In this document: positions 675 through 42,568 of the stretch, piece after piece
Position numbering within the stretch: the first letter of the stretch is position 1
Layout: each line of letters begins with the position of its first letter
Assembly: GCA_964486215.1 (NCBI GenBank)
Contig: CAZALI010000001.1
Location: 12,837-76,836, forward strand
DNA: 64,000 nt
Direction: 5' to 3'
Source: an uncultured Muribaculaceae bacterium
GTDB lineage: Bacteria > Bacillota_I > Bacilli_A > RF39 > UBA660
Position numbers and translations under genes: made by a program
Notes under the pieces: model-generated
Told to the model about the DNA's origin: nothing
The model's input: only the letters and a program-made list of their open reading frames with translations
Database searches by the model: none

Positions 675-1061
675 TTGCTTAATATTCAAATCATTTATAA
701 GATGTTTTTGAGAGGAGGTGATTATATACTTAATCAGGTAATTTTAGTAGGTAGACTTACGCGTGATATTAGTGTGAATAAAGGTAAAGGATCTAAAGTT
801 GCGACTATATCTTTGGCTGTACCTAGAAGTTTTAAGAATTTAGATGGTAATTACGATACAGATTTTATAGATTGTTTAGCTTTCGATCAAGTGGCTGAGA
901 ATACTAAAGAATACTGTGGTCGTGGAGATATAGTAGGTGTGAAAGGCAGACTTCAAACAAGAAAAATAGAAGAGGATGGCAAGAGTAAAAATATAATGGA
1001 AATTATTACGGAAAAAGTAACATTTTTGAGTTCGAAGAAACCAGAAGAAGAAGCAGATTAA
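675..1061 (+). CDS. ssb: Single-stranded DNA-binding protein, short form lacking the acidic DIPF tail. The true start is probably downstream of the track start, near 726 after the RBS GGAGGTG (714-720), where no in-frame ATG exists.
   Basis: OB-fold SSB signature LNQVILVGRLTRD...ISLAVPRSFKN...DFIDCLAFDQVAEN...GDIVGVKGRLQTRKIEEDGKSKN. Confidence 0.75.
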   Translation: MLNIQIIYKMFLRGGDYILNQVILVGRLTRDISVNKGKGSKVATISLAVPRSFKNLDGNYDTDFIDCLAFDQVAENTKEYCGRGDIVGVKGRLQTRKIEEDGKSKNIMEIITEKVTFLSSKKPEEEAD

Positions 1062-1074
1062 CATCTGCTTTTTG
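1052..1074 (+). terminator. Intrinsic terminator after ssb.
   Basis: Stem AGCAGAT / ATCTGCT with loop TAAC, followed by a T-run. The stop codon lies within the hairpin. Confidence 0.5.
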
Positions 1075-1138
1075 TAAACTAAGAGATAAGTTTTGGTATA
1101 TTAGTTTAAATATTATATAATAAAATTGAGGTGTTTAT

Positions 1139-2455
1139 ATGAATGATTTTATAAATTTTGGTTATACTGAAGAGGATTATAAATATATAAGAAATTATTA
1201 TTTTATTAATGATATGAGTGATGATAAATTTGAAAGTAATTTTAATAATGTTAGTAAATGTTTATTGGAACTTGGTTATAGTAAAGATGAGATAATAAAG
1301 ATGACTAGGAAATTACCTAATATTTATAGTCATTCTGTTGACAATATAAAGAGAAAATTCAATGATATGATTGAATTTGGTTATAATAAAGATGAAATTA
1401 TAGATATAACAGTAAGTTCTCCTACAATTTATAGTCATTCTATGGAGACTATTAAACAGAAAGTGTCTAATATAATGTCTTTAGGTTATAGTAAAGATGA
1501 AGTATTAAAAATGACTAAGAATTGTCCTCCAATTTTTGGCTTATCATTTGATAATTTAGATAAGAAATTAAATGATATGGTAGATTTGGGTTATAGTAGA
1601 GAAGATGTATTAAATATGGCAAGGAAGAGTCCAGTTGTCTTTGCTTTGTCAATTGATAGTATGAAGCAAAAAATAAATGATTTGCTTGAACTTGGTTATA
1701 GTAAAGAAGATATTATTAAAATGGGTAAAAAATTACCTTCAATATATAGTCATAAAATAGATGATATAAAAGGAAAAATAGATAATTTTGAATCATTGGG
1801 TTATAGTAAAGATGAAGTATTAAAAATGACTAGATCTTCAGCTGATTTATTTAGTCATTCTGTAGAATATATAAAGCAAAGAATGGATGATATTATTGCT
1901 TTAGGTTATAGTAAAGATAATGTATTAAAGATGAGTAAAACTATTCCTAGGCTTTATGATTATTCACTTGATAATATAAAGAATAAAATAGACAGTATAG
2001 AATCATTTGGATATAGTCATGATGAAGTAATAGATATGTCTACTATTTTTCCTGCACTTTTCGGACTTCCTGTGGATACTTTAAAGATGAGAATAGCTAA
2101 TATAGAGAATCATGGCTATGATAGAGAAGATGTTCTCGACATGATTAAAAAAATGCCATCTCTTTTAGGATTCTCTTCTGATACTTTGGATGAAAAATTA
2201 GACTTTTATGATTCTATAGGTATGCATGATTTGGCATTGGTAGAAACTAGACAATTAATACAGAGTACAGCTCTTTCTTATGCAAGATATAAATTCTTTG
2301 AATCTACTGGGCTTGAAGTTAATATGAATAATTATAGTAAATTGTTTACTGGAAATAAACAATTTGAAAAACAGTATGGTATAGAAAAGAAAGAATTATT
2401 AGAAAAATATAATTATGATAATAATAAGGAGACTAAAGATGGAAGAACTTTATAG
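1139..2455 (+). CDS. Tandem-repeat helical protein with about eleven 35-aa repeats resembling mTERF motifs (LGYSKDEVLKMTKxxPxIFxxSxDxLKxKIxxLxxLGY).
   Basis: The repeat is visible in the translation with a 35-aa period, and at DNA level the block ggttatagtaaagatga recurs at about 1276, 1486, 1692, 1796 and 1902. The motif pattern (Leu-Gly-aromatic-Ser ... Pro ... hydrophobic Ser, then basic residues) matches mTERF repeats. Confidence 0.5.
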   Translation: MNDFINFGYTEEDYKYIRNYYFINDMSDDKFESNFNNVSKCLLELGYSKDEIIKMTRKLPNIYSHSVDNIKRKFNDMIEFGYNKDEIIDITVSSPTIYSHSMETIKQKVSNIMSLGYSKDEVLKMTKNCPPIFGLSFDNLDKKLNDMVDLGYSREDVLNMARKSPVVFALSIDSMKQKINDLLELGYSKEDIIKMGKKLPSIYSHKIDDIKGKIDNFESLGYSKDEVLKMTRSSADLFSHSVEYIKQRMDDIIALGYSKDNVLKMSKTIPRLYDYSLDNIKNKIDSIESFGYSHDEVIDMSTIFPALFGLPVDTLKMRIANIENHGYDREDVLDMIKKMPSLLGFSSDTLDEKLDFYDSIGMHDLALVETRQLIQSTALSYARYKFFESTGLEVNMNNYSKLFTGNKQFEKQYGIEKKELLEKYNYDNNKETKDGRTL

Positions 2456-2834
2456 TATGGGTATTAGAGATGAAATACTTAAAAGTATGATTGAAACTAA
2501 TCCGGAGATAACTGAGTTAAGTGATAGTGATATTAGAGATAAAGAAAATATATTACTTAATATGGGATGCAGTAATAAACAGGTGTTAAGTATTATAGGT
2601 AGTAATCCTACTTTTCTTAGTAGAACTGATGAAAGAATTAATAAATTGATAGACTATTTGGGTAGTATGGGATTTGATACTTTAAATATTTTATTTGATT
2701 CTAATCCATATATATTAAATTTAGAAGCATTTGAGATAGATAATTATATTAATAATAGAAAGAATAATGGAGAAGAGTTAGATAATATTATTGATGATTT
2801 AGATAGTAATCCATATTTGTTTTATGAGATGTAG
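2439..2834 (+). CDS. Second, shorter mTERF-like repeat protein. It begins at ATG 2439 with RBS AAGGAG at 2427-2432 and overlaps the upstream gene by 17 nt.
   Basis: Translation MEELYSMGIRDEILKSMIETNPEITELSD...MGCSNKQVLSIIGSNPTFLSRTDERINKLIDYLGSMGFD shows the same repeat grammar as 1139..2455. Confidence 0.45.
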   Translation: MEELYSMGIRDEILKSMIETNPEITELSDSDIRDKENILLNMGCSNKQVLSIIGSNPTFLSRTDERINKLIDYLGSMGFDTLNILFDSNPYILNLEAFEIDNYINNRKNNGEELDNIIDDLDSNPYLFYEM

Positions 2835-2932
2835 TTTAACTACTCTTTTTTTGTAAAGAAATGTATATAATTGTGATTATATTATTGTCATTATAAATAA
2901 CATTGTATAATTATAATAGTGAGGTTTTTATT

Positions 2933-3652
2933 ATGAGTGATGATTATGATTGGGCAGTTAGAGAACATGGAGGTGGAGTAAAAGTTGATCCACTTAAAGG
3001 TGACCATGGACCAGTACATGAATACTCAGTAGAAGAAGCAGCGGCTATAGAACATGGTGGAGGTGGAGTAAAGGTAGATTCACTTAAAAGTTATCATGGA
3101 CCAATACATGAATATTCAGTAGAAGAGGCTACAGCTATAGAATTTGGAATGGGTGCAGTTAAAGCTGATCCTATGGTAAAGCATGGAACTCGTGATGAAG
3201 AAATACTAAAAAATATTAATATTTTAAAAACAGCTAGTGATGTTACTAATTTAAGAGATCTTATGTCTAGTATTCCAGATAAAGCTATTCTTGAAGTTAT
3301 TTCATATCGTTATAAGAAATTTTCTAATATTGTTGATGATAGAGGATTTGCTTATTCCAAGAAGGCTAAAGAAGAATTAGAGACGGTTTTGGGTCTTGAC
3401 TTAGCCATTATAGAAGAAGCTATGAAAGAAGAAAGAGATTTATCAGAGATTGATACAGCTATTTATGTTGGACAAAATGAACATAAGAATGCAGATGAAT
3501 TGTTAGATACTTATAAAGATAAACTCAATAACTCTGGAGTAAATATTACTATTACCGATAAAGAAGGTGTAGAAAAAGATGCCATTGAAGTTATTGAAAA
3601 TATGAGAGAGGGTACTAGCAAAGATTTAGAAGAGAGAGGTTATGCAAGATAA
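2933..3652 (+). CDS. Hypothetical protein with an N-terminal ~29-aa repeat present 2-3 times (EHGGGVKVDPLKGDHGPVHEYSVEEAAAI).
   Basis: ORF with RBS AGTGAGG before ATG 2933; the repeat is visible in the translation. Confidence 0.5.
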   Translation: MSDDYDWAVREHGGGVKVDPLKGDHGPVHEYSVEEAAAIEHGGGGVKVDSLKSYHGPIHEYSVEEATAIEFGMGAVKADPMVKHGTRDEEILKNINILKTASDVTNLRDLMSSIPDKAILEVISYRYKKFSNIVDDRGFAYSKKAKEELETVLGLDLAIIEEAMKEERDLSEIDTAIYVGQNEHKNADELLDTYKDKLNNSGVNITITDKEGVEKDAIEVIENMREGTSKDLEERGYAR

Positions 3653-4034
3653 TAAAAGAAAGATAATTATAGGTGCATTTACTTTAGTAGTACTTATAAT
3701 ATTACTTATTTTTATGTTTAAAGGATTTAAGGCTACTAAAGATAAGTGTGATGTTTTTAGTGGTGGAGGATATGACTTACTTTTTGAGGCTAATGGTGGA
3801 AAGAAAGTTACTTTTTTAGATGTTTGTATAGGTTGTCCACCTGATGCTTATGATACTATTCCTACAACTACTAGAGCTGGCTATAAGTTTGCTGGTTGGT
3901 ATTACGATAAAGCTTTAACTAAGAAAGTTAAAGCTACGACTACTATGGATATTCCTACTAAGAATAAATATGATGAGAGAGGATGCCATATTGGTTACCA
4001 AGATATAACTTTATATGCAAAATGGGATAAATAA
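3642..4034 (+). CDS. Membrane-anchored protein with a Listeria-Bacteroides (Flg_new) type repeat.
   Basis: N-terminal transmembrane segment IIIGAFTLVVLIILLIFMF, and the motif GYKFAGWYYDKALTKKVKATTTMDIPT, which matches the GYxFxGWYxD hallmark. Confidence 0.5.
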   Translation: MQDNKRKIIIGAFTLVVLIILLIFMFKGFKATKDKCDVFSGGGYDLLFEANGGKKVTFLDVCIGCPPDAYDTIPTTTRAGYKFAGWYYDKALTKKVKATTTMDIPTKNKYDERGCHIGYQDITLYAKWDK

Positions 4035-5771: not shown

Positions 5772-7040
5772 ATGGAAAAAATTTATGTTGATGAACCTCA
5801 AAAGAATAATAAGAAAAGTAAATGGAATCTTTTTAATGTATCTTTAGGTTTAACTTTTGCAGTTGCTTTTATAGCAATGGTATCAATCTTATTAGTAGGA
5901 CTTAGTGGACAGAGTTATGCATTAGATGATGATGAGACTGCTCCTGAAACTATTCATACTAACGAAATTAGTGCACTTATTGCGATGAGTCCAACACCTA
6001 GTGCTTTTCATGAAGTTGAAGTGTATACAGCAACAGCTAACAATGAAACTTTCCCAGTATTTTGCGTAGAAAGTGGAGTAACATATGCTGGTAATCATGA
6101 TCTTAATAGAGGAGATTTGATTGATGATGTTGGTTATGTTTATTTGTTCTCTAGATTAGAGCATTTATCTATGACTGATACAGATGCAGCTAAAAATAAA
6201 TATCTTAAAGCTTGGCTTGAGCAAACAGCAATTTGGTCTTATATAGGTCAAATTACTGATGCAGCTGATACTAAGACTGATGATTGTTTTAAAAAAGGCA
6301 CAGGAGCTGCATGCTATAATGAAGTTCAACAAGCTAATGAGTTGTATGTTTGTGATGGTAACCCTGCTGGTTGTCCAAAAACACAAGCACAGACTGTTAT
6401 AACTTCTGATGATACTTTCTATGAAGATTTTGGTATTGTTGATATAATCAATCAAGCTATTTATTATCATAATAATAATATTGATGCTCTTTCATTAACA
6501 ATAAATAAAGCTGGTTCTGAGTTTACTTTAACTGAAGATGGTAAGTACTTCCGTTCTCCTAAGTTAACAGTAGTTGCTAGTGCTGGAGTTGAAGATTTTG
6601 CTGAAGTACAAGATAACTATTCATTATCTTTAGTTAGCGCAGCTGAAGGTACTTATGTAGAAGGTATTAAAGATGGCGTAGCTAATAGATTAAATGATTT
6701 AAATGATTTATCTCTAAGCGAATATAAAGAATTCTATGTATATGTACCAAAAGATAAAGTAAATGAACAAACTAAGAGATTTGAAGTTTCTGTATCTGGT
6801 AATTTTGAAATATATTCTGGCTACTATTATACTGGACAAGGTGTTCAATCTGTTACTAGATTAAAAACACTTATTACTTCTACTGATAATGCAGTACCAT
6901 TAGAAATTGTTTATTCTCCTGATGTTCCAGATACAGCTATGAATGCTTCTCAAGGAATATATTTAGTTGGATTAATTGTATTACTTACTGGTTTAGGAAT
7001 TTTATATGTCAACGTTAAAAAACAACAAAATCAAAACTAG
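5772..7040 (+). CDS. Surface protein with an N-terminal signal anchor and a C-terminal sorting-signal-like tail. The tail is VPDTA + MNASQ + hydrophobic segment + KKQQNQN.
   Basis: N-terminal TM LGLTFAVAFIAMVSILLVGL. The C-terminus reads ...SPDVPDTAMNASQGIYLVGLIVLLTGLGILYVNVKKQQNQN. A sortase gene lies immediately downstream. Confidence 0.5.
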   Translation: MEKIYVDEPQKNNKKSKWNLFNVSLGLTFAVAFIAMVSILLVGLSGQSYALDDDETAPETIHTNEISALIAMSPTPSAFHEVEVYTATANNETFPVFCVESGVTYAGNHDLNRGDLIDDVGYVYLFSRLEHLSMTDTDAAKNKYLKAWLEQTAIWSYIGQITDAADTKTDDCFKKGTGAACYNEVQQANELYVCDGNPAGCPKTQAQTVITSDDTFYEDFGIVDIINQAIYYHNNNIDALSLTINKAGSEFTLTEDGKYFRSPKLTVVASAGVEDFAEVQDNYSLSLVSAAEGTYVEGIKDGVANRLNDLNDLSLSEYKEFYVYVPKDKVNEQTKRFEVSVSGNFEIYSGYYYTGQGVQSVTRLKTLITSTDNAVPLEIVYSPDVPDTAMNASQGIYLVGLIVLLTGLGILYVNVKKQQNQN

Positions 7041-7665
7041 AAATAAATTTCAATTAAAAAAGAGCCAGATCTTGTTATTTGGCTCTTTATTAATATTTCT
7101 TGGGACAATGTTTCTCTCTTGGGACTTCTTACTTAGTCTCCGTGATGAAATATATTCTGATATGATGTTAGCTTTTTCTACTACAACTAAGGATAAGAAA
7201 GATGTACCTATTACTAAGAATATTAAAGATAAGAATGGTACTATTTATGATCAAGGAGATATAGATTATGGAGAATACTTAGGTGTTTTATCTATACCTA
7301 AGATTGGTCTTAGGAGAGGATTTTTAGATGTTAATTCTAGGTATAATAATATACAGTATAATGTAACAATGTTACGTGGTTCTTCTACTCCTGATGTTAA
7401 GAATGGTAATTTAATGTTAATTGCTCATTCAGGAGATGCATATATTTCTTATTTTGCATATTTATATAGATTAGAAGTGGGAGACAAATGTTATGTAAAA
7501 TATAATGGCTATAATTATGAGTATCATATCGTTAAGATTTATAATACTCCTAAAACTGGTAAAGTAACTATATCTAGAAATTATGATAAAACTACTTTAA
7601 CTTTAATTACTTGTACTAAGGATAGTGATACTTTACAAACAGTTTATATAGCAGAAGCAGAATAA
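7006..7665 (+). CDS. Sortase family transpeptidase.
   Basis: N-terminal TM, a His in LMLIAHSGD, and the catalytic Cys motif TLTLITCTKD (TLxTC) near the C-terminus. Confidence 0.65.
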   Translation: MSTLKNNKIKTRNKFQLKKSQILLFGSLLIFLGTMFLSWDFLLSLRDEIYSDMMLAFSTTTKDKKDVPITKNIKDKNGTIYDQGDIDYGEYLGVLSIPKIGLRRGFLDVNSRYNNIQYNVTMLRGSSTPDVKNGNLMLIAHSGDAYISYFAYLYRLEVGDKCYVKYNGYNYEYHIVKIYNTPKTGKVTISRNYDKTTLTLITCTKDSDTLQTVYIAEAE

Positions 7666-42343: not shown

Positions 42344-42419
42344 GCCGAAGTAGCTCAATATCAGAGCAGTCGCGTTGTTTGCGAAAGGTTAGTGGTGTAA
42401 GTCCATCTCTTCGGCACCA
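42344..42419 (+). tRNA. tRNA-like element, 76 nt ending in CCA. It resembles tRNA-Thr(UGU) but has a degenerate T-arm, so it may be a pseudogene or an atypical tRNA.
   Basis: Acceptor stem GCCGAAG/CTTCGGC is perfect. D-arm GCTC..GAGC. Anticodon loop candidate GTTGTTT. The T-stem pairs poorly and there is no TTC motif. Own promoter TGGTATAAT at 42322-42330. Confidence 0.35.
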
Positions 42420-42481
42420 TTTTTGTTTATTACTAACTTTTAGTTAGTTTTTTTATTAATTATGTTATAATATATGTAGTT

Positions 42482-42568
42482 GCTTTCGTGGCGGAATTGG
42501 TAGACGCGGTGGACTCAAAATCCACTGGTAGCGATACTGTGCGGGTTCGAGTCCCGCCGAAAGCACCA
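42482..42568 (+). tRNA. tRNA-Leu (anticodon CAA), type II with a long variable arm and encoded CCA.
   Basis: Acceptor GCTTTCG/CGAAAGC. Anticodon stem GTGGA/TCCAC with loop CTCAAAA. T-arm GGGTTCGAGTCCCGC. Promoter TGTTATAAT at 42463-42471. Terminator at 42577-42603. Confidence 0.85.

Follow-up and report, generated by a model that had tools for sequence, protein, structure and literature searches.

Two overlapping genes near the start of a 64,000-nucleotide stretch of DNA from an uncultured bacterium (forward strand of contig CAZALI010000001.1, positions 12,837 to 76,836, GenBank assembly GCA_964486215.1; hereafter the window, whose first letter is position 1) encode two mTERF-family proteins (mTERF, mitochondrial transcription termination factor), a long solenoid protein, L, and a short acidic protein, S. 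That both proteins have the mTERF fold and belong to this family is, in our judgement, virtually certain. Taking the different lines of analysis together, we regard it as moderately probable that L acts as a sequence-specific DNA-binding roadblock or regulator, with S as its acidic, protein-binding partner; in support of this reading, the top structural matches of L are structures in which MTERF1 is bound to its termination site on DNA.

L and S are mTERF-family proteins

Pfam family PF02536 (mTERF) was the top match for both proteins, with 165.8 bits (E = 1.5e-48) for L and 41.4 bits (E = 1.1e-10) for S, the latter searched as a 139-aa version of its open reading frame (ORF); both scores exceed the curated gathering threshold of 23.1 bits. 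PF02536 is also present in all listed homologues of L and in all but five of the listed homologues of S. A phmmer search of the PDB sequences returned only human MTERF1 (4.5e-9), MTERF3 (2e-8), and a designed left-handed toroid of 35-residue units (4yxx). The AlphaFold2 (AF2) model of L (pLDDT 89.5, pTM 0.69) has three helices per unit; when it was compared with the PDB by Foldseek, the first 15 matches were all mTERF proteins, and MTERF1-DNA complexes scored best (E = 9e-9, TM score of 0.73 on the target). The S model (pLDDT 95.1), likewise with three helices per unit, matched MTERF3 and MTERF1 best (query TM score of 0.79, root-mean-square deviation of 2.4-2.5 Å), and a profile comparison with hhalign aligned S to 3.5 L units at 91% probability. 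The MTERF4-NSUN4 complex was among the structural matches of both L and S. Family profile, PDB sequence matches and fold search hence agree with the initial annotation of this DNA, which had read the pair as mTERF-like from its repeats; the helical-repeat superhelix that it expected is borne out by the AF2 models, which superpose on mTERF structures, and this superposition, together with the match to the 4yxx toroid, suggests that the solenoid is left-handed.

Other helical-repeat families had been named as what could overturn the assignment. Pfam gave no TPR or HEAT matches for L or S, while UBA-like families appeared as sub-matches of 13-25 residues to the LGY-helix part of the unit, ranked under mTERF, and UBA matches in the fold search had probabilities of at most 0.16; TPR, HEAT and UBA identities were therefore rejected. 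A TALE-like identity was rejected as well, as TALE structures appeared only at ranks 16 and 21, with TM scores of ~0.3 and deviations of 15-17. In NCBIfam, no family scored above its cut-off for L or S. Classical mTERF proteins are nuclear-encoded and imported into organelles; L and S have Shine-Dalgarno sites and lie, among ssb, GNAT, PyNP, and sortase genes, on the contig of a Bacilli metagenome-assembled genome (MAG). Eukaryotic contamination was not supported, as this contig carries bacterial genes, ribosome-binding sites and tRNAs.

Architecture of L

The initial annotation counted ~11 tandem 35-aa units in the 438-aa L protein, and this count holds as nine exact units flanked by one degenerate unit on the N-terminal and one on the C-terminal side; the latter (residues 360-~395) opens the C-terminal module. 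The repeat consensus given in that annotation agrees with the consensus of the window units, LGYSKDEVLKMTKKSPSIYSHSVDNIKQKINDIES. Each unit is predicted to fold into three helices of ~10, 5, and 13 residues (DSSP assignment of the AF2 model), and the corresponding 105-nt DNA period is present in 8 copies with 61-74% identity. Across an alignment of 20 homologues (A1), the N-terminal cap unit has an invariant G8 and a Y9 conserved in at least 90% of sequences, while the C-terminal cap carries four of the nine invariant columns (S376, A382, R383, and Y384) within the motif IGMH...QS..LSYARY.F...G..V.M.NY.KLF...KQFEKQYGI.K.ELL.KY.Y.

An identical DNA repeat within L had also been noted, correctly except that it is 34 rather than 33 nt long and occupies the positions given in Table 1. 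The two copies are spaced 315 nt, i.e., three units, apart; none of 2000 column shuffles of the match pattern between units gave a run of 33 nt or more, and the longest run in L after this one is 18 nt. The number of nine units in L rests on a single assembly: a Logan contig of the same organism starts at ~1803 of the window, within the 34-nt repeat, and an NCBI contig of the same organism starts at ~2406. An exact look-up of L in the assembly collection found no record. As to the proposal that the repeats make the gene variable in length, such variability was found at the level of orthologues and paralogues; a search of JGI metagenomes for other strains, with the 28-nt L/S junction as query, gave no match.

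S is a separate gene, probably coupled to L

The second mTERF-like protein was found to overlap L by 17 nt, as initially described, and to comprise 131 rather than 132 aa, with ATG 2439 as the most likely start codon. S is a separate gene. GenBank MBQ6477414.1, from a MAG labelled "Bacilli bacterium" (GCA_017432965.1), has the same sequence throughout (100% identity), and databases hold 410 homologues. The best 120 of these show 54-68% identity and nearly all comprise exactly 131 aa, with almost no variation in the C-terminal half (LNILFDSNPYILNLE and DDLDSNPYLF). By tblastn, S was found, next to L-type genes, in 54 of 77 related loci (the survey is described below), and ~45 of these 54 matches span residue 1-4 to residue 128-131. 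The question of whether a single frameshift would merge the two ORFs can thus be answered in the negative: the ribosome-binding site of S, its nearly constant length of ~131 aa, its 410 homologues and its occasional position upstream of an L gene rule out that it is a frameshifted tail of L, and a frameshift artefact is further excluded by three independent assemblies that are identical base for base across the L/S junction.

Throughout the related loci, S lies mostly directly downstream of an L-type gene and at times upstream of one; the L and S genes found are all co-directional. The 17-nt overlap recurs in 14 loci, while overlaps of 8, 4, or 1 nt occur elsewhere, and exactly one S is present in 42 of the 51 loci with complete L genes. 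Within the window, the stable hairpin at the end of ssb is likely the terminator of that gene and would set it apart from L and S, and the weak hairpin with its U7 run at 2826-2852 is a possible operon terminator. Because of this upstream terminator, the promoter-like site ahead of L and the hairpin plus U7 at the 3' end, L-S looks like a bicistronic unit of its own; it is probably a translationally coupled two-gene operon.

Table 1. Features of the L-S locus, in window coordinates.
Feature	Position	Strand	Remarks
Hairpin and U-run at end of ssb	1046..1075	+	RNA fold -12.6 kcal/mol, z -4.68; 0/200 shuffles as stable
Promoter-like TTGGTA-17-TATAAT 5' of L	1093..1121	+	10/12 consensus; such matches are frequent in AT-rich DNA, inference from position
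L ribosome-binding site GAGGTG	1128..1133	+	5 nt ahead of ATG; sequence reading
L gene	1139..2455	+	ORF; 438-aa long mTERF/pTERF-type solenoid protein; stop codon 2453-2455
N-terminal degenerate cap unit of L	1157..1270	+	Residues 7-44 (FGYTEEDY...); conserved in alignment A1
Nine canonical 35-aa (105-nt) units of L	1271..2215	+	Residues 45-359; exact 35-aa register
Exact 34-nt repeat, copy 1	1484..1517	+	Start of unit 3; not reached in 2000 shuffles
Exact 34-nt repeat, copy 2	1799..1832	+	Start of unit 6; short-read contig of same organism begins here
C-terminal cap module of L	2216..2452	+	Residues 360-438; specific to bacterial L-type proteins
S ribosome-binding site AAGGAG	2426..2431	+	Within the end of L, 7 nt ahead of ATG; sequence reading
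S gene	2439..2834	+	131-aa acidic mini-mTERF; 3.5 units, without cap modules; overlaps L by 17 nt
Weak hairpin, then U7 run	2826..2852	+	Over/after S stop codon; -6 kcal/mol, z -0.76, not significant alone

Distribution and gene organization

A scan of one genome per species, covering 185,579 species and retaining 80 of the 82 stretches found, identified relatives of L and S in at least 67 assemblies, with 77 loci in total. The initial remark that bacterial mTERF homologues are rare is well supported by this count, as it is by the 307 cluster representatives among 1.84 billion in which phmmer found the L-specific C-terminal module; among the matches listed, this module sits mostly at or near the C-terminal end of the protein. 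All 77 loci are from uncultured gut MAGs (human, rabbit, goat, deer, buffalo, chicken, and mouse), with a median GC content of 26% and with the labels Bacilli, Clostridia, Erysipelotrichaceae, Mycoplasmatota, Clostridium sp. CAG:433 or CAG:524, Candidatus Onthousia and Candidatus Aphodocola, the last two being Bacilli incertae sedis. The L/S family is restricted to low-GC, uncultured, Bacilli-like gut MAGs. Three loci are from MAGs with non-Bacillota labels, i.e., L013 (Candidatus Nanosyncoccus), L046 and L066 (both Muribaculaceae), and L013 (39%) and L046 (34%) have a higher GC content; these labels could reflect mis-binning, mislabelling or rare transfer beyond the Bacilli-like clade.

L-type genes are found alone or in tandem, 1-10 to a cluster, and have 2-15 canonical units each, with a mode of 7. 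The L of the syntenic locus L026 (ssb-L-S-GNAT-PyNP) differs from that of the window by one clean 35-aa unit, and one metagenomic contig has the order L-S-L-S-L. The largest array was seen in the MAG RGIG8542 from water deer caecum, where ten L-type genes stand in unbroken tandem, with no S, on an 11.5-kb contig (L016, 145-11367); on a second contig from this MAG (L037), an S gene precedes three further L genes. Unusual architectures include an N-terminal XRE-type HTH_3 domain fused to L units and C-cap (P0077 and P0110), a pair of C-cap modules, i.e., a single ORF with two L modules (P0003, P0017, and P0233), and a fusion of cytidylate kinase with L (P0004; L027, 5365-7131), which may be a read-through or gene-calling fusion; cmk is the upstream neighbor of L in L083. 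Short-read contigs recurrently end inside L-type genes (L078, JAFRID010000019.1, 1-429; L079, 1-653; and many of L012-L075). The repeats therefore break short-read assemblies; as a result, public MAGs and protein catalogues contain too few L genes or truncated ones, and many of the C-cap matches are fragments.

Genes flanking the clusters differ by lineage and include ssb, mutL and holA, cmk and ftsZ, alaS and ruvAB, tex, and pyr genes. An origin of L-S in defence or mobile elements found no support: no relatives were detected in IMG/VR viral contigs (pattern search and tblastn), the BFVD viral structure models gave only one giant-virus protein with a TM score of 0.3, the PADLOC defence models only a weak, zero-stretch Cas11a match, and PHROGs only weak families of unknown function.

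Conserved and variable positions

Over 630 units, the consensus is LGYTKEEVIKMTKSLPSIYGYSIENIKQKIEDLIS, in which G2, Y3, P16, and K29 are nearly invariant (Pro16 is 91% conserved). Basic residues are kept at unit positions 5, 10, 13, 27, and 29 in 61-98% of the units (counting K alone at position 13 and K plus R at the others), and the L of the window retains 36 of 45 basic residues along this stripe, as counted over its nine units. Variation is greatest at positions 14, 15, and 17, beside the invariant proline, and at 34 and 35. While the L family is mostly basic, with a median isoelectric point (pI) of 8.8, L proteins are acidic in 16 of 54 loci. S proteins, by contrast, are uniformly acidic (pI 4.05-4.84, with 4.05 for the S of the window) and have 18 conserved acidic versus 5 conserved basic positions, the basic stripe positions of L being replaced by acidic or neutral residues.

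The two proteins also differ in their rates of change. Between the window and L026, identity is 35% for L and 56% for S, compared with 61% for PyNP, 72% for ssb, and 36% for GNAT; L thus changes faster than S, ssb, and PyNP, with GNAT as divergent as L. L is the variable and S the constant component of the pair.

Relation to known mTERF-like systems

Prokaryotes are widely said in the mTERF literature to lack the family, for example in a plant study of 2026 (PMC12977773), and the initial annotation considered bacterial members uncharacterised. This is out of date, as a tandem-repeat protein screen defined prokaryotic mTERF-like proteins under the name pTERF (Nucleic Acids Res 2024, PMC11417379); the window pair is real, but an mTERF-like bacterial family had already been named. 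As given in the pTERF section of that paper, two members bind double-stranded DNA in a sequence-specific manner with nanomolar affinity: pTERF1 (MBQ3414883.1, from a Clostridia MAG of the ruminant gut; period-35 cluster TR_35_C32, TR_35_C32_2) binds ACTNNNAGTC with a dissociation constant of 1.87 nM, and pTERF2 binds another motif. The same section describes homologues with 3-11 units, found in MAGs only and mostly in Bacillota, and predicted targets linked to Gene Ontology terms of RNA metabolism.

By the descriptive traits given in the section, all of which were found, L-S is a probable member of this pTERF kind. L shares with pTERF the 35-residue tandem period, the mTERF annotation and the three-helix units; Bacillota gut MAGs as hosts are likewise common to both, and the 3-11 units reported there compare with nine canonical units in L (11 with caps) and 3.5 in S. 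The organism of the window (GCA_017432965.1) and pTERF1 also share a ruminant gut MAG catalogue and the MBQ accession series. Differences were found as well: in pTERF1 the canonical proline and hydrophobic pattern is described as not seen, whereas Pro16 is highly conserved here, and the pTERF section makes no mention of an S partner, an L-S overlap, tandem L arrays or a C-cap. Homology searches of databases with L, S and profile queries did not bring up pTERF1 by name, and the term pTERF was found in the literature searched only in PMC11417379.

Among better characterized proteins, human MTERF1, which wraps DNA at its termination site (PDB 3MVA, 3MVB, and 3N6S), has the same fold as L over ~330 aligned columns (phmmer 4.5e-9, as above) and three-helix units of similar length (~30-35 residues). 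Identity is 17-20%, however, and the repeats of MTERF1 are degenerate and interspersed, whereas L has nine units in perfect 35-aa register; unlike MTERF1, L is bacterial and chromosomally encoded, has N- and C-cap modules of its own and involves no import into an organelle. Plant mTERF6 is reported to terminate transcription by PEP, the bacterial-type plastid polymerase (PMC6085346), and plant mTERF5 (MDA1) pauses PEP from a double-stranded DNA target site (PMC7909791). These two chloroplast proteins resemble L in that they act on a bacterial-type multisubunit RNA polymerase, which is the mechanism proposed for L, but they are nuclear-encoded eukaryotic proteins. MTERF4-NSUN4 (PDB 4FP9 and 4FZV) exemplifies an mTERF protein that works via an obligate protein partner; in that complex the partner is an rRNA methyltransferase and the ligand rRNA, whereas the candidate partner of L is a mini-mTERF and no enzyme is linked to the pair. 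Finally, proteins of the TALE and BurrH type, which are programmable repeat DNA binders, share several traits with L: tandem helical units of 33-35 residues in a solenoid that wraps DNA (as proposed for L), hypervariability at a few positions of each unit, a unit number that varies, and repeats that break assemblies. They belong to another fold family (TM score of ~0.3) and have two-helix units with a repeat-variable diresidue (RVD) loop.

A possible DNA-binding roadblock and its alternatives

In the mechanism that we propose, the L solenoid, consisting of the cap, nine three-helix units and the C-cap, would by analogy most likely lie along double-stranded DNA and read a specific sequence. The lysine and arginine residues conserved at positions 5, 10, 13, 27, and 29 of the unit would form a stripe that binds the backbone, and specificity would be set by the hypervariable positions 14, 15, and 17 around Pro16 together with 34 and 35. 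The mostly basic L family, the conserved basic positions and the XRE-type HTH_3 fusions are in favor of this reading, as are the uniformly acidic S and the faster divergence of L. DNA-bound L would then act as a roadblock or regulator of the bacterial RNA polymerase, through termination, pausing or repression. Translational coupling would allow S to be made in step with L. S has lost the basic stripe residues of L; it most likely binds protein and would not bind nucleic acid. Either the conserved L cap or some shared downstream factor may be its partner, and one S would serve all L paralogues of a genome. We infer that the L of the window binds DNA at a target of its own, that it contacts S, and that the pair has an in vivo role of this type; the specific in vivo role is put forward as a tentative proposal.

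Several observations weigh against this reading. The L of the window has a pI of 5.3 and a charge of -11, at the low end of its family, and several eukaryotic mTERF proteins bind RNA or ribosomal particles instead of DNA (e.g., MTERF4, and the mitoribosome matches in Foldseek). Kinship with pTERF is drawn from description, no DNA target of L can be named, and the pTERF1 motif ACTNNNAGTC is not enriched in the window, with 11 occurrences found versus 9.1 expected. Contact between L and S is deduced only from gene linkage and patterns of conservation. Gene neighborhood was considered as a functional clue and rejected, given that neighbors differ between lineages.

The first alternative is that L and S bind rRNA or another structured RNA and aid ribosome assembly, RNA modification or splicing, like MTERF3, MTERF4-NSUN4 and several plant mTERFs. 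Foldseek also matches L to MTERF3, to MTERF4 in mitoribosome assembly intermediates and to a mitoribosomal mTERF of Tetrahymena, the MTERF4 heterodimer with a protein partner (4fp9) would be a precedent for L-S, some clusters adjoin RlmN, RsgA, a SpoU methylase or Tex, and the pTERF section ties predicted targets to RNA metabolism (PMC11417379). However, the only experiments on bacterial members, as reported in that section, show specific binding of double-stranded DNA, the fast-evolving L arrays (1-10 genes of 2-15 units) fit a conserved rRNA ligand poorly, and gene neighborhoods are inconsistent; we therefore consider a role in RNA or ribosome biogenesis unlikely.

At the sites of animal MTERF1 and DmTTF, replication forks are paused as well, and a second alternative is that L serves in replication or genome maintenance, either as a polar fork barrier (contrahelicase) or as a site-specific DNA-architecture protein. 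Several clusters adjoin ssb (in the window and in 4-5 loci), mutL and holA, and ruvAB, as would fit such a role. Nevertheless, cmk and ftsZ, pyrimidine genes, and alaS are among the neighbors too, so that the DNA-metabolism genes may simply reflect small genomes, and GC skew is positive throughout the window, so that no terminus lies here. This explanation appears improbable to us.

We attach just as little weight to a third alternative, in which L and S, both acidic here, would make up a helical-repeat adaptor for other proteins, i.e., a protein-protein scaffold that binds no nucleic acid. The low pI of both window proteins, and the 16 of 54 loci with an acidic L, would be in keeping with it, but the window L keeps most of its basic stripe positions, most L proteins are basic, and members of the family bind DNA at nanomolar affinity according to the pTERF section (PMC11417379). 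Finally, while the two ORFs do overlap in different frames and Pfam also lists UBA-like families, the evidence given above (an independently conserved S, a junction identical in three assemblies, a contig with bacterial genes, ribosome-binding sites and tRNAs, and UBA matches that are short and of low probability) makes it very improbable that the pair is an artefact, whether a frameshift-split gene, eukaryotic contamination or another helical-repeat family (TPR, HEAT, or UBA).

Neighboring genes in the window

The ssb gene upstream of L (713-1061) has a perfect GGAGGTG at 713-719 and no ATG, GTG, or TTG at the right spacing, and the conserved N-terminus of the single-stranded DNA-binding protein (ILNQVILVGRL) starts at ATA 725, pointing to a non-canonical start codon. 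At ~112 aa this protein is short, and its end, EEEAD, lacks the usual acidic-IPF tail. Just downstream of S, a 239-aa ORF (2933-3652) contains an internal duplication of ~35-40 aa (GGGVKVDPLKGDHGPVHEYSVEEAAAIEH..., two to three times); it matched no Pfam family and has no homologue in the 77 related loci. Compared with the syntenic L026, this ORF and the gene that follows it, which has a Flg_new repeat (3642-4034), are insertions. Further downstream (5772-7665), a predicted 422-aa surface protein that ends with VPDTA, a hydrophobic stretch and a basic tail lies directly upstream of a sortase gene, suggesting that the two are a sortase and its substrate, with a sorting motif that is unusual. 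Two adjacent tRNA genes (42344-42565) are the only Rfam matches at the gathering threshold in the window, and the GC skew, positive over all 64 kb, is consistent with a single replichore.

Significance

A bacterial mTERF family that is clean and perfectly regular in its units has a bearing on how a major family of organellar gene-expression proteins arose, and it may provide a new programmable DNA-binding scaffold, as the pTERF section of PMC11417379 proposes. Beyond what that section contains, the window locus adds a conserved, probably translationally coupled acidic candidate partner (S), conserved cap modules, arrays of paralogues, and candidate specificity positions; the in vivo role therefore becomes testable, in terms of binding sites, switching by S and stopping of RNA polymerase. 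A more far-reaching possibility, which we regard as somewhat doubtful, is that L-S constitutes an undescribed two-component system of gut Bacilli, in which an expandable, fast-evolving set of DNA-reading L proteins (1-10 paralogues of 2-15 units, with specificity at positions 14, 15, 17, 34, and 35) would act via one constant acidic S, the whole forming a lineage-specific, programmable machinery for transcription termination, roadblocks or fork barriers. If this were true, the narrow, host-associated distribution of the family would bear on the origin of eukaryotic mTERF proteins or on an acquisition by bacteria from eukaryotes.

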